From: Elusimicrobiota bacterium
GTDB taxonomy: Bacteria; CAYTYR01; UBA6262; DAOVJB01
Direction: 5' to 3'
NCBI GenBank assembly: GCA_030673425.1
Contig: DAOVJB010000001.1
Location: forward strand, 1 to 32,288
Length of the DNA stretch: 32,288 nt
Shown here: in pieces, positions 3,925 through 13,576 of the stretch
Numbering within the stretch: the first letter of the stretch is position 1
Layout of the letters: each line of letters begins with the position of its first letter
Notes under the pieces: generated by a model
Told to the model about the DNA's origin: nothing
The model's database searches: none
The model's input: only the letters and a program-made list of their open reading frames with translations
Translations under genes and position numbers: made by a program

Positions 3925-5298
3925 ATGCGAAAAATAATAGCAGAGCGAAGAGGATTAAAACGGATAAAAATAGATTTACCCATTAGGTATTGTTATCATG
4001 ATATTATGGGGCCAGCAGCTTCTAGAGAAGCAACTGCACTCGATATAAGCTCAGGTGGGATTTCATTTAAGGTAGGGGAGACTTTTTCACTTTCTACCAT
4101 ATTGAAAGTTGAGGTAGACCTTCCTGCATTTCCAAAGCCGGTTGAGATTTTGGTAAAAGTCGTAAGAGTGGAACAAACTGATAAAGAAAATAATTTTATT
4201 GTAGGAACTACTATTACACGTATTAACGAGCAAGACAAACAAAAGATAACTATCTATTTTGAACAAGCTGACATTCTTGAATTATTTCAGGCAACAGTAG
4301 ATGCCCTAGCCTCTGATTTGCATTTATCTGTAAACCATCCTCCCATATTGCGTGTCGGAGGAGAGTTGCAGCCTATACGTAATAAAGGAGTATATAATTC
4401 AATGGATTTAAAACGCATTATTTATAGTATTATGACTGAAGAGCAAATAAAGTTTTTTGAAGAAAACCTGGAATTAGATTTCTCCTATTCTGTTTCTCCT
4501 ATTATTCGTTTTCGTGTTAATGTGCATTTACAAAGAGGTAATGTAGAAGCAGCTTTTAGAAGAATTGAGGCACGAATTAAAACTATACAGGAGCTCGGCT
4601 TACCAACGGTAGTGGCTGACTTGGCAAGAAAAAGAAGAGGAATAGTCCTTTTGACAGGAGCTACCGGCAGTGGGAAAACCACGACCATGACAGCTATGGT
4701 TGACTTAATTAATTCTGAAAGGGAATGTTTAATTATAACTCTGGAGGACCCAATTGAGTATGTTCACGTATATAAGAAGAGTATAATTAAGCAAAGAGAG
4801 ATTGGTATGGATACTAAATCATTTGCTACTGCACTAAGGCATGCGATGCGTCAGGATCCGGACGTTATTGTAGTAGGAGAAATTCGTGATTTAGAAACAA
4901 TCTCTACAGCTTTAGCAGCGGCAGAAACAGGCCATCTTATTATAGCGACTTTGCCTTCCTACGATGCTGCTCAATCTATTAGCCATATTGTACATATGTT
5001 CCCTGCACAGCAACAGAGACAGATCAGATTACAACTAGCTGATACTCTACAGGGTATCGTTAACCAGGTTTTGTTACCACGAGCAGACAATCCCTTTGAA
5101 CGCGTAGTAGCTACTGAAACCTTGATTACAACGTCAGCGGTGCGTAATATTATCCGTGAACAAAGATTAGAACAATTACCTTACATTATTCAAACAGGTT
5201 CGCAGTTTGGCATGCATACTATGCAGAATTCATTAGAAAGATTACATAATAAAGGAATAATAACTAAAGAATCAATGATGAAGCGTTCCAAGAGTTAA
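3925..5298 (+). CDS. pilT: PilZ domain-fused type IV pilus twitching-motility (retraction) ATPase PilT
   Basis: aa 1-~110 form a PilZ domain with RxxxR (R9-GLK-R13) and DxSxxG (D40-ISSGG). aa ~115-457 form a full PilT: ASDLHL N-domain, Walker A GATGSGKTT, Asp box ITLEDPIEY, Walker B DPDVIVVGEIRD, His box TGHLIIATLPS, C-terminal AVRNIIRE. Confidence 0.9.
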   Translation: MRKIIAERRGLKRIKIDLPIRYCYHDIMGPAASREATALDISSGGISFKVGETFSLSTILKVEVDLPAFPKPVEILVKVVRVEQTDKENNFIVGTTITRINEQDKQKITIYFEQADILELFQATVDALASDLHLSVNHPPILRVGGELQPIRNKGVYNSMDLKRIIYSIMTEEQIKFFEENLELDFSYSVSPIIRFRVNVHLQRGNVEAAFRRIEARIKTIQELGLPTVVADLARKRRGIVLLTGATGSGKTTTMTAMVDLINSERECLIITLEDPIEYVHVYKKSIIKQREIGMDTKSFATALRHAMRQDPDVIVVGEIRDLETISTALAAAETGHLIIATLPSYDAAQSISHIVHMFPAQQQRQIRLQLADTLQGIVNQVLLPRADNPFERVVATETLITTSAVRNIIREQRLEQLPYIIQTGSQFGMHTMQNSLERLHNKGIITKESMMKRSKS

Positions 5299-5334
5299 CA
5301 GGCACAAATTTTTATCTAAAAGGAGAGTATAGAT

Positions 5335-6615
5335 ATGAAACAAAAAGATAAAAAAGTACTTTTGATAGACGATTCTATTTTTGCGCATACTGTTGTGAAG
5401 GATTTATTTGATGGGCATGAATTTGACCTGGTTGCTGCTGCAATAGACGGTGAAAAGGGGGTAGAATTATTTAAGGAAACAAAACCCGATGTTGTTCTTC
5501 TTGACATTGTTCTTCCCGGAAAGCAGGGGGATGAGATTTTAGAGGATATATTAAAGATTAACTCGGACGCCAAAATTATAATGGTCAGTTCTTTGGCTAC
5601 TGAAAACAAGATATTGAAATGCCTCAGAAAAGGAGCCAAGAACTTTGTTCCTAAGCCTTTCGAAAAGCAAGAGCTGATTAACGCAATAGAAGAAGTAACT
5701 AAAACAGGAGCGGTATCATATTCAGTGGTATCTGTATTAAAAGATGCAAACATCGGCGGTAAGTTCTTCGGTCAATATCTTCTGGCTAAAAATAAAATCA
5801 CCTCCCAAGAGTTGGAGGCTGCCCTTAAATATCAAAAAGAAAAGAATTTGACTCTTGAGACTATTTGCAAGAGGGAAGGGTTGCTTAATGAAGATGAGGC
5901 CAAGCAGGTTCATAATGTGCAGAAGGAATTTCCGGATAAGAGCTTTGCAGAAATCGTTGTAGAGAAAAACTTTTTGGACCAGGAAACATTAGAGGATGTC
6001 ATAAAGGAGCAGAAGAAAAATCAGGTTTATTTAGGTCAGGCTCTGGTGGGTGTCGGGGCAGTGTCTCAAGAAGAGATAAATCAGGAACTTAAAAATTATA
6101 AAGAAGAACAGGACAGGATTGAGGGAGAAATAGTCTATAACCTCTACAAGCTTGAGGATAAGGATGCAGTTAAAATATTTGTGAGCTTTACCGTAAATGC
6201 GATTAAGCTATTTGAGCAGATGCTCGGGATTCCTGTTAAGATGAACAGGTGTGTACCTTTAGCCGATTCATTTGAGACCAGGGAATACCTGATTGAACAG
6301 AAGGCGCACGGGGCGCTCAAGACATCTTTTCTTTTTAATTTTTCCAAAGAGATGGCCAGGTGTATATCTTCTGTTTTATTTTCAAAAGAGGTTACTAATG
6401 TAGATACCTATGGTATTGATGCATTAAAGGAGTTCCTGAATATAGTCAGCGGGAATTGTTGTTCCAAATTGAGTAATATCGGGGTGAATATCGAGATGAA
6501 AGCTCCTGAGCTATGGGTGGAAGGAACTTATCCGAAAAAAGGGAAGTTTACCTATGTTTCTCTGATCTCATCCGGGGGAGATTTTGAGATTTTGATGAAA
6601 CTGGATAAAGTATAG
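5335..6615 (+). CDS. Response regulator: REC + four MshEN/T2SSE_N-like 24-aa repeats + CheX/CheC-like C-terminal domain
   Basis: REC hallmarks: D12/D13, D57 in VVLLDIVLPG, S85/S86, K107 in PKPF. aa 144-255 carry four repeats fitting (R)LGxxLLxxGLLxxxxLxxxLxxQ in two pairs, each pair separated by 5 aa. aa ~275-426 resemble CheX (VKIFVSFTVNAIKLFEQMLG..., DALKEFLNIVSGNCCSKLSNIGVNIEMKAPE). Confidence 0.75.
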   Translation: MKQKDKKVLLIDDSIFAHTVVKDLFDGHEFDLVAAAIDGEKGVELFKETKPDVVLLDIVLPGKQGDEILEDILKINSDAKIIMVSSLATENKILKCLRKGAKNFVPKPFEKQELINAIEEVTKTGAVSYSVVSVLKDANIGGKFFGQYLLAKNKITSQELEAALKYQKEKNLTLETICKREGLLNEDEAKQVHNVQKEFPDKSFAEIVVEKNFLDQETLEDVIKEQKKNQVYLGQALVGVGAVSQEEINQELKNYKEEQDRIEGEIVYNLYKLEDKDAVKIFVSFTVNAIKLFEQMLGIPVKMNRCVPLADSFETREYLIEQKAHGALKTSFLFNFSKEMARCISSVLFSKEVTNVDTYGIDALKEFLNIVSGNCCSKLSNIGVNIEMKAPELWVEGTYPKKGKFTYVSLISSGGDFEILMKLDKV

Positions 6616-6661
6616 GGTAGAGGAAGAGGAAATAACACAGAAAATAAAAGGCGGAATAAAA

Positions 6662-7156
6662 ATGGCTAATTTTTCTTTTGATGTTGTATCTGAGGTGGAC
6701 TTACAGGAAGTTGATAATGCGGTTAATCAGGCAAAAAAAGAACTGCTTCAGAGATATGATTTTAAGAACTCCAAGTGCTCCATTGATTTTAACAGAAATG
6801 AAAAAAAGATAACTTTGATCGGAGACGATGACTTTAAACTCCGTGCTGTTAAAGATGTTTTAGCCACAAAAATGGTTAAAAGGGGTGTTAAACTTAAAGC
6901 TCTCCTGTTTAGAGAACCTCAGAAAGCATTTGAAGGGTCTTTGAGGCAACTTGTTGATATATCCGTAGGTATTGATAAGGAAAAAGCTAAGGAACTGGTT
7001 AAGATTATAAAAAAACTGAGATTAAAGGTGCAGGCTAGTATAGAAGGAGAAAAATTAAGAGTTTCTAGTCCTAAAAAAGATGACCTACAAGTAGTTATTG
7101 CGCATCTAAAAAGCATTGATTTTCCGTTAGCTCTTAGTTTTCGTAATTATAGATGA
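6662..7156 (+). CDS. yajQ: YajQ family (UPF0234) nucleotide / cyclic-di-GMP-binding protein
   Basis: Characteristic N-terminus MANFSFDVVSEVDLQEVDNAVNQAKKELLQRYDFKNS and a length of 164 aa. Confidence 0.9.
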   Translation: MANFSFDVVSEVDLQEVDNAVNQAKKELLQRYDFKNSKCSIDFNRNEKKITLIGDDDFKLRAVKDVLATKMVKRGVKLKALLFREPQKAFEGSLRQLVDISVGIDKEKAKELVKIIKKLRLKVQASIEGEKLRVSSPKKDDLQVVIAHLKSIDFPLALSFRNYR

Positions 7157-13377: not shown

Positions 13378-13414
13378 ATATAAAAACCGACTTACCTTTT
13401 CTTCGGCAACTCGG
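13378..13414 (-). terminator. Intrinsic terminator forming the expression platform of the c-di-GMP riboswitch leader
   Basis: Minus-strand RNA CCGAGUUGCC-GAAGAAAA-GGUAAGUCGG forms a 10-position stem with one G-G mismatch and one G-U pair. It is followed by UUUUUAUAUUU and sits ~45 nt upstream of the pilin ATG (13333). Confidence 0.7.
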
Positions 13415-13430
13415 CTGTCTTTTTACTGCT

Positions 13431-13520
13431 CGTTATCGGTGCACCCGGCTGTCTTTGTCTAGATTAAGACCCGTGGTTTTGCGTCTCTGTCTCACGACAG
13501 ATTTGCCTTTTCGGAAATTT
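13431..13520 (-). promoter_or_regulatory. Cyclic-di-GMP-I (GEMM-I) riboswitch aptamer candidate
   Basis: Minus-strand RNA: CCGAAAAGGCAAA-UCUGUC-GUGA-GACAGA-GACGCAAAACCACGGGUCUUAAUCUAGACAAAGACAGCCGGGUGCACCGAUAACG. This gives GGCAAA, a 6-bp helix capped by the GNRA tetraloop GUGA, GACGCAAA, a second helix CGGGUCUU/AAGAC(AG)CCG, and GGGU..ACCGA. The order of conserved blocks is the same as in Vibrio cholerae Vc2 (GGCAAA-helix-GAAA-helix-GACGCAAAGCC...GGGGUUACCGA). Confidence 0.75.
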
Positions 13521-13547
13521 AGTAATATATATATACTCTCTATTATA

Positions 13548-13576
13548 ATTATACCACAAATTATTGCTCTTGTCAA
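13548..13576 (-). promoter_or_regulatory. Sigma70-type promoter of the riboswitch-pilin operon
   Basis: The minus strand reads TTGACA (13576-13571), a 17-nt spacer, then TATAAT (13553-13548). Both hexamers match consensus perfectly. The predicted TSS lies ~20-30 nt upstream of the aptamer. Confidence 0.65.

Follow-up and report, generated by a model that had tools for sequence, protein, structure and literature searches.

Control of type IV pili by cyclic diguanylate (c-di-GMP) is established for extension motors, namely MshE and the FimX-PilZ-PilB system (PMC5013675, PMC4624772), and extends to pilin transcription in Clostridioides difficile, where the class II riboswitch Cdi-2-4 switches on pilA1 when bound ligand allows read-through (PMC6200980). 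Candidate receptor modules have also been catalogued beside signalling domains: (MshEN_N)2-CheX, represented by Geobacter lovleyi Glov_2742, and REC-MshEN_N-UNK are listed architectures (Wang et al. 2016, PMC5013675 Supplementary Table 4), REC being a receiver domain, and in Vibrio cholerae PlzC-CheX ties a c-di-GMP receptor domain to a CheX phosphatase of phosphorylated CheY (CheY-P), the CheX effect being reportedly independent of c-di-GMP binding (PMC12799141). Here we consider a 32,288-nt stretch of Elusimicrobiota DNA (contig DAOVJB010000001.1 of GCA_030673425.1, positions 1-32,288, forward strand; hereafter the window), in which four putative c-di-GMP elements share about 9.7 kb (3925-13576): a PilZ-PilT fusion, a REC-(MshEN_N-like)x2-CheX protein (REC-CheX below), a YajQ-family protein, and a riboswitch-led operon of prepilin-like genes. 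A first-pass annotation had located all four correctly and proposed that one messenger sets both transcription of a pilus tip complex and motor activity; its domain and RNA assignments largely hold, while co-inheritance of the parts finds little backing. The locus is probably better described as several independent c-di-GMP outputs, sharing a messenger and no co-inherited module, inside a housekeeping array of a c-di-GMP-rich genome. It appears to be a loose neighbourhood rather than a proven module, and proximity is weak evidence for shared function.

The + strand from 1003 to 9195 is a single tight co-directional array: yjbQ (UPF0047), nadC, birA, a cyclophilin-type peptidyl-prolyl isomerase gene (ppi), PilZ-PilT, REC-CheX, yajQ, and a DinG/YoaA-type helicase gene (dinG; 7153-9195, +; NF053712, 609 bits, with a Helicase_C_2 match), the last a backbone gene outside the signalling set. 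The spacing that had been cited for the three signalling genes is as described, with gaps of 36 bp (PilZ-PilT to REC-CheX) and 46 bp (REC-CheX to yajQ) and a 4-bp overlap of yajQ with dinG. Adjacent genes overlap or lie within 46 bp of each other all the way from yjbQ to dinG, however, with gaps of 18 bp or less as the rule, and the idea that short gaps mark a dedicated signalling operon was rejected because equally short gaps run throughout the housekeeping genes. The pilin operon is a separate unit on the - strand (13576-9218), convergent with the + array. All remaining genes of the window are housekeeping (SpoVG, LysS, LolCE/LolD, McsA/McsB/ClpC, TamB, S6, SSB, L9, DnaB, Alr, and MlaE), and no GGDEF, EAL, or HD-GYP protein, PilB/C/M-Q component, or prepilin peptidase is found among the open reading frames of the window, as the first-pass annotation had also observed. 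We would picture a housekeeping array, yjbQ-nadC-birA-ppi to dinG and on to lysS-lolCD-mcsAB-clpC, that holds several separate c-di-GMP outputs.

Relatives put the proposed module to the test. The closest longer one, GCA_043821115.1, has REC-CheX, DinG, and LysS proteins 75, 72, and 75% identical to those of the window. One of its contigs runs yjbQ-nadC-birA-ppi-REC-CheX-DUF6498-[c-di-GMP riboswitch]-lipoprotein-ARPP-1-GDT1-DinG and then ends; another starts with the DinG C-terminus and continues through a flavin reductase, three pilin genes, a tandem riboswitch, and LysS-LolC-LolD-McsA-McsB-ClpC. The orthologous pilin operon thus lies between dinG and lysS (62-75% amino acid identity), and at this syntenic locus ppi leads directly into REC-CheX without PilZ-PilT, and YajQ is missing before dinG. 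A contig from the Joint Genome Institute (JGI) collection with a REC-CheX 64% identical carries ppi, REC-CheX, a 693-aa protein, MsrB, and YajQ, again without PilZ-PilT. Only one short contig (L007; PilZ-PilT 89% identical) repeats the order birA, ppi, PilZ-PilT, REC-CheX, so that PilZ-PilT adjoins REC-CheX only there and in the window; the protein database has no PilZ-PilT homologue between 54 and 89% identity. Four more distant PilZ-PilT homologues (50-53%) lie among unrelated genes (dnaE/HU/hisS; FGE-sulfatase; rnf/apbE/maf; ribosomal protein genes/rpoA), REC-CheX homologues at about 40% adjoin dksA-rmuC or PAS-kinase/REC/REC-HD-GYP genes, and one assembly carries both families on different contigs. 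The units that are conserved are the riboswitch-pilin operon and the ppi/REC-CheX adjacency, and PilZ-PilT looks like a lineage-specific insertion, as does YajQ in the picture with the best support. The co-conservation of the PilZ-PilT, REC-CheX, and yajQ trio with the riboswitch-pilin operon that had been named as a check was not recovered.

In one alternative all parts would serve one pilus, with c-di-GMP simultaneously setting tip-pilin transcription, retraction by PilZ-PilT, and a phospho-signal from REC-CheX, and with YajQ as a further effector. PilT and pilins belong to the same machine, all parts fall within the same 9.7 kb, and the 75% relative preserves synteny of REC-CheX, dinG, and the pilin operon. 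That same relative nevertheless keeps the pilin operon and REC-CheX where PilZ-PilT and YajQ are absent, the pilin operon has its own promoter and terminator, and pilin or type IV pilus genes occur near other PilZ-PilT or REC-CheX homologues in one case only, an incidental pilB-pilT-pilC cluster 5 kb away (L002). We regard such an integrated module as unlikely. Several observations nonetheless weigh against full independence of the outputs: two related contigs have PilZ-PilT next to REC-CheX, which leaves recent functional coupling of the two conceivable; in a second lineage, that of the JGI contig, no more than two genes separate YajQ from REC-CheX; and the relative has a second c-di-GMP riboswitch between REC-CheX and dinG, a hint that surface genes under c-di-GMP control gather in this neighbourhood. 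How surprising the clustering should seem can be gauged roughly. PilZ, HD-GYP, or MshEN domains are carried by 5 of the 135 neighbouring genes in the loci fetched from relatives, a biased sample, and a Poisson estimate from the same sample puts two extra c-di-GMP elements near a given one at about 4% per anchored 10-kb window, which is uncommon and not extraordinary.

The first of the four outputs would be the riboswitch-led operon, a self-contained unit of promoter, c-di-GMP-I aptamer, intrinsic terminator, three prepilin-like genes, and closing terminator. Its sigma-70-type promoter (13548-13576, -) has TTGACA and TATAAT boxes 17 nt apart and an extended TG, matches the consensus at 12 of 12 positions, and is conserved in the leader of GCA_043821115.1. 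The aptamer (13401-13516, -) is the only Rfam match in the window and falls to RF03167 (c-di-GMP-I-GGC) with 67.8 bits against a gathering score of 59 (E 3.3e-14); since the search reports the best-scoring family of each clan, here CL00126, the match to a second, lower-scoring family of that clan was suppressed. The GEMM-I class named earlier thus stands, and the best model is RF03167 rather than the RF01051 that had been expected. With both RF03167 and the Vc2-type RF01051 the RNA shares its GGCAAA/GACGC core, its P2 helix, and, closing the first hairpin, a GNRA (GUGA) loop, whereas an A after GACGC (GACGC-A-AA) departs from the RF03167 consensus GACGC-G-AA (ACGCGAAg). The G at that position, which by the model consensus we take to be what defines the "GGC" variant, is absent from the window aptamer, from an aptamer at related locus L008, and from both aptamers at L018, the pilin-operon locus of GCA_043821115.1, all of which carry A. 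The position is presumably that of Vc2 A47, which intercalates between the two guanines of the ligand, and the contacting triad G20/A47/C92 would then correspond to the G in AAAGGCAAA, the A in GACGC-A-AA, and the C in UUG-C-CGAAG. With all three equivalents canonical, c-di-GMP is the expected ligand, and a cGAMP-binding or otherwise altered-specificity variant was considered and rejected on the same grounds.

The expression platform is less straightforward. An intrinsic terminator (13373-13416, -; -16.5 kcal/mol) forms between AGCCGAGUUGCC, which is the aptamer 3' strand as aligned, and GGUAAGUCGGUU, followed by a U-tract; a Shine-Dalgarno sequence and the ATG at 13333 come after the leader. 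As with Cdi-2-4, a c-di-GMP aptamer sits in the 5' untranslated region of pilin genes, where it would control read-through; in the window the aptamer 3' strand is shared with the terminator. The two differ in that Cdi-2-4 is of class II and precedes a major pilin and assembly genes, while the window has a class I aptamer, which is tandem in the relative, three minor or modular pilin-like genes, and a duplicated 3' half. This duplication is an unexplained oddity: a 39-nt insertion in the P2 loop is nearly a copy of the aptamer 3' half, so that GACAGCCGGGUGCACCGAUAA (half A; 13433-13453, -) precedes GACAGCCGAGUUGCCGAAG (half B, the 3' half in the RF03167 alignment; 13401-13419, -), and competition between them for the aptamer core is possible. 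Two arrangements are considered.

In the first, c-di-GMP binding to the aptamer closed by half B would block termination and switch on a tip or minor-pilin adhesin set, which we take as the most likely mechanism; on balance we lean toward an ON switch. This reading draws on the precedent of Cdi-2-4 and on relatives with a plain design: the L008 aptamer (12000-12074; 62.2 bits) and the first of two tandem c-di-GMP-I aptamers before the L018 pilin operon (6943-7019 and 7044-7121; scoring 67.7 and 67.2 bits and having separate terminators, where the window has a single aptamer) also use their 3' halves as terminator strands, as expected of ON designs. The L008 aptamer, which is the one between REC-CheX and dinG in the relative, precedes a lipoprotein gene (12114-12674) whose 186-aa product combines a CarboxypepD_reg domain and a match of Fervidolysin_NPro type; the window has no counterpart.

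In the second arrangement, half A would complete the aptamer, c-di-GMP would lock it, and half B would be released to form the terminator and repress the pilin genes; in the ligand-free state, invasion of the aptamer by half B would make that half an antiterminator. Several features of the leader count against the ON reading and toward this one. Half A is transcribed first, and in the minimum-energy leader fold (-41.5 kcal/mol) it closes P2 while half B builds the terminator. Half A offers a perfect P2 and a canonical A-C junction; in half B a compensatory change from G-C to A-U relative to the L018 terminator keeps the terminator stem of the window intact, at the cost of a C.A mismatch in the P2 that half B closes. 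The order of 5' half, half A, linker, half B, and terminator recurs in the second L018 aptamer (7044-7175) despite a different terminator sequence. On the other side, it is half B that the covariance model places as the 3' half of the aptamer, half A has a one-nt insertion at the junction and makes a poor P1 partner, both plain relatives are ON designs, and thermodynamic folds miss ligand and co-transcriptional effects. We therefore hold an OFF or two-state switch to be possible and rather doubtful.

The operon under this leader agrees with the earlier description of a riboswitch-led minor-pilin operon whose first product has 742 aa. That protein (11105-13333, -) starts with a prepilin-like segment (KKG|FTLIE) and carries three Ig-like beta-sandwich domains of the CarboxypepD_reg family (PF13620, 73 bits over three stretches); its N_methyl score of 19.8 bits is just under the cut-off of 21.2, and it is 68% identical to a 740-aa orthologue at L018. 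By its sequence it would be a modular pilin. The second protein (176 aa; KKG|MNYIE; 10520-11050, -) passes TIGR02532 with 21.1 bits against 16.3 and is 62% identical to its L018 orthologue. The third (402 aa; EEG|FALIL; 9299-10507, -) has a prepilin-like N-terminus and a beta-rich C-terminus, has five homologues in the whole protein database, and lacks Glu5; the first two have the complete class III signal of Gly-1, hydrophobic helix, and Glu+5. A terminator-like hairpin with a 12-pair stem and a T-run closes the operon (9218-9248, -). The GspI/J/K-like labels that had been attached to the three products do not carry over, since only the N-terminal prepilin segments match, GspK reaching 20 bits against a cut-off of 130 over the N-terminus of the 402-aa protein. 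The AlphaFold2 (AF2) model of that protein, of low confidence (mean predicted local distance difference test score, pLDDT, 58.9), shows no significant fold match in the PDB, and for it the GspK-like label is neither supported nor excluded.

A second output would be an accessory paralogue of PilT that begins with a PilZ domain and was inserted after ppi in this lineage only. The fusion (3925-5298, +) was correctly recognized at the outset as a PilZ-PilT protein with intact c-di-GMP-binding motifs. Its PilZ part (aa 1-115; 3925-4269, +) matches PF07238 over aa 30-109 with 33.8 bits (cut-off 22.5), and both signatures can be read in the translation: RxxxR as R9-G-L-K-R13 and DxSxxG as D40-I-S-S-G-G45, with R13 invariant and R9 nearly so among 28 aligned fusion homologues. 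The ATPase part (4270-5298, +) belongs with hexameric PilT-type motors (TIGR01420 pilT_fam, covering PilT/PilU, 418 bits against 319; T2SSE, 133.8 bits) and aligns end to end with the Geobacter PilT4, Aquifex PilT, and Pseudomonas aeruginosa PilT structures (E 1e-86 to 1e-98), best with the PilT4 entries 5zfq and 6ojx (E ~1e-97). Walker A (GATGSGKTT), the Asp box, Walker B (catalytic Glu, E319), and AVRNIIRE, the counterpart of AIRNLIRE, are present over the full-length core shared with PilT/PilU, and K251, E274/E278, and E319 are invariant in the fusion family. MshE and FimX-PilZ-PilB represent control of extension motors in trans, whereas here PilZ sits in cis on a retraction-type ATPase; probably it binds c-di-GMP there and changes hexamer activity or partner choice.

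Whether this ATPase is a full motor is another matter. The two-histidine His box of PilT/PilU is incomplete: in the clade of the window Pro344 stands where the second histidine would be (GH337LIIATLP344S; aa 340-344 at 4942-4956), as seen where "atlhtnsa" of PilT4 aligns with "atlpsyda", and other PilZ-PilT clades keep it. In Geobacter metallireducens PilB the equivalent His contacts the ATP gamma-phosphate (PMC5424180), and full motor activity of PilZ-PilT is therefore not to be assumed; the substitution suggests altered cooperativity of ATP hydrolysis in this clade. Sensing may vary across the fusion family as well. In the nearest clade (~53% identity) the second PilZ motif has degenerated to EISAEN, against DxSxxG, and Pfam makes no PilZ call, so that some of the family has probably lost the ability to bind c-di-GMP. 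Fusion-length proteins (456-470 aa) are not rare in metagenomes, with some 30 clusters at 90% identity among the best hits and at least about 11 clusters at 50% identity in uncultured bacteria of the Planctomycetes-Verrucomicrobia-Chlamydiae (PVC)/Elusimicrobia type. When the PilZ part alone was used as query against 1.84 billion representatives, about 11 of the best 150 matches had fusion-type length and the rest were mostly generic PilZ proteins. The fusion is undescribed in the literature searched: no paper found there uses the term "PilZ-PilT," and a review of PilZ architectures does not mention the combination.

The third output, REC-CheX (5335-6615, +), would be a predicted CheY-P-type phosphatase set by its own receiver and possibly by c-di-GMP. 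The receiver (5335-5703, +; Pfam, 79.6 bits) has the complete phospho-acceptor set D12, D13, D57, S85, and K107, invariant in 17 homologues, and in the predicted model superposes on Thermotoga maritima CheY with a template modelling (TM) score of 0.94. The C-terminal domain (6160-6603, +) matches Pfam CheX (30.8 bits against 27) and CheC (27.8 bits); Foldseek aligns the model with T. maritima CheX (1squ/1xko) at TM 0.82 (E 3.6e-10), and the D362-x3-E366-x2-N369 residues D362, E366, and N369 are invariant across the family. Compared with Glov_2742, which likewise combines tandem MshEN_N-like modules with CheX, the window protein adds an N-terminal receiver, and what V. cholerae distributes over separate proteins (PlzC and CheX) is here joined in one polypeptide of putative receptor modules, CheX, and REC. 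The architecture, a new combination of known parts, is undescribed in the literature searched.

The middle region is where the assignment needs qualification. Its roughly 120 residues, with eight predicted helices, form two MshEN_N-like four-helix modules (aa 143-196 and 203-258; 5761-6108, +); NCBIfam NF053729 ("c-di-GMP-binding domain, MshE-related") matches over two stretches with 64.3 bits (cut-off 38), and the best PDB sequence match is to the three MshEN repeats of Thermus thermophilus PilF (6f8l; E 3.5e-7). The REC, CheX, and tandem MshEN-like parts proposed in the first reading are in this sense borne out as domains, although Pfam PF05157 gives no match in the protein and the motifs have diverged. 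In a Foldseek search with the full model, MshEN modules were not among the top 50 matches, a list dominated by CheX and CheY. Compared with the 24-residue motif described for MshEN (PMC5013675), these modules retain its spacing and its L...L..Q parts (module 1, FFG..L...L..Q and TLE......Q; module 2, SFA..L...I..Q and YLG..I...L..Y), while the RLG triplets of MshE and PilF have become FFG, TLE, SFA, and YLG. Each module thus has one good half-site (FFG, YLG) and one without the critical Gly (TLE, SFA), and the Arg is kept in none of the four, being replaced by F, T, S, and Y. Two points weigh against c-di-GMP binding here: the Gly replacement E175 is invariant in the family alignment, where A205 is variable, and G11I in MshE abolishes c-di-GMP binding (PMC5013675). 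F144, Y232, G146, G234, Q167, Q196, and Q226 are, in turn, invariant or nearly so, and the aromatic side chains of F144 and Y232 could supply the guanine stacking that Arg9 otherwise provides. Binding by these modules is plausible and not predictable from the sequence.

REC-CheX proteins are scarce: 5.8 billion proteins yield 17 full-length clusters, and 185,579 species genomes yield 9 loci, of which several are labelled Elusimicrobia; a metagenome scan with the family alignment added one full-length relative and 20 generic REC matches and brought no gain in synteny. Downstream of a paralogue in the relative genome (L006/L010, 10001-14318) come genes for a PAS histidine kinase, a REC protein of one domain, and a REC-HD-GYP protein (HD_5). 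These neighbours suggest that the family acts in a phosphorelay coupled to the breakdown of c-di-GMP.

The fourth output would be an ordinary YajQ gene (6662-7156, +), which matches PF04461 (DUF520; 200 bits) and NF003819 (188.8 bits against 146) over its full length. [quoted passage not shown] Because only some members bind, the window protein cannot be counted as a c-di-GMP sensor; the earlier proposal to do so was right about the family, and membership does not predict binding.

Taken with the degenerate half-sites and with Pro344, this invites a reading in which some of the supposed sensors are blind to the messenger: the MshEN-like modules would be linkers, YajQ a housekeeping nucleotide or RNA binder, and the PilZ-PilT clade catalytically impaired, leaving the riboswitch, and perhaps the PilZ domain, as the only true c-di-GMP receptors. 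The missing PF05157 match and the loss of Arg from all four half-sites fit this, as does the nucleotide preference of the YajQ proteins of other bacteria. NF053729 lies well above its cut-off, however, the guanine-stacking candidates are conserved with their neighbours, a REC-CheX paralogue adjoins a REC-HD-GYP gene, and the PilZ motifs are intact. We give this reading a serious but minority chance.

Two further features of the window deserve mention in their own right. The McsA (UVR)-McsB (arginine kinase)-ClpC operon (17126-21195), which points to protein quality control by arginine phosphorylation in a diderm-type genome, adjoins Lol and TamB genes and is kept in the relative (L018). Near the start of the window (205-792), a SpoVG-family protein matches SpoVG over two stretches and, at 195 aa, has roughly double the normal length.

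As such, the clustering contributes little to these interpretations: because it is not conserved, it gives no basis for assigning functions by association. A more ambitious scenario, in which a PilT-type ATPase gained a cis PilZ domain beside a CheX phosphatase and near a riboswitch-pilin operon, so that one messenger would coordinate pilin choice with retraction and the duplicated 3' half would serve as a strand-mimic expression platform, seems to us improbable. Each element merits biochemical tests of its own, first among them the PilZ-PilT fusion and the riboswitch with its duplicated strand. Known c-di-GMP control of type IV pili acts on extension ATPases (MshE, and PilB via FimX/PilZ) and on C. 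difficile pilin transcription, and a motor of PilT type that carries its own canonical PilZ domain would allow gating of retraction by a second messenger to be tested directly. REC-(MshEN_N)2-CheX would link c-di-GMP to CheY-like dephosphorylation inside a single polypeptide, and the riboswitch leader provides a compact system in which to ask how a duplicated aptamer strand affects switching.

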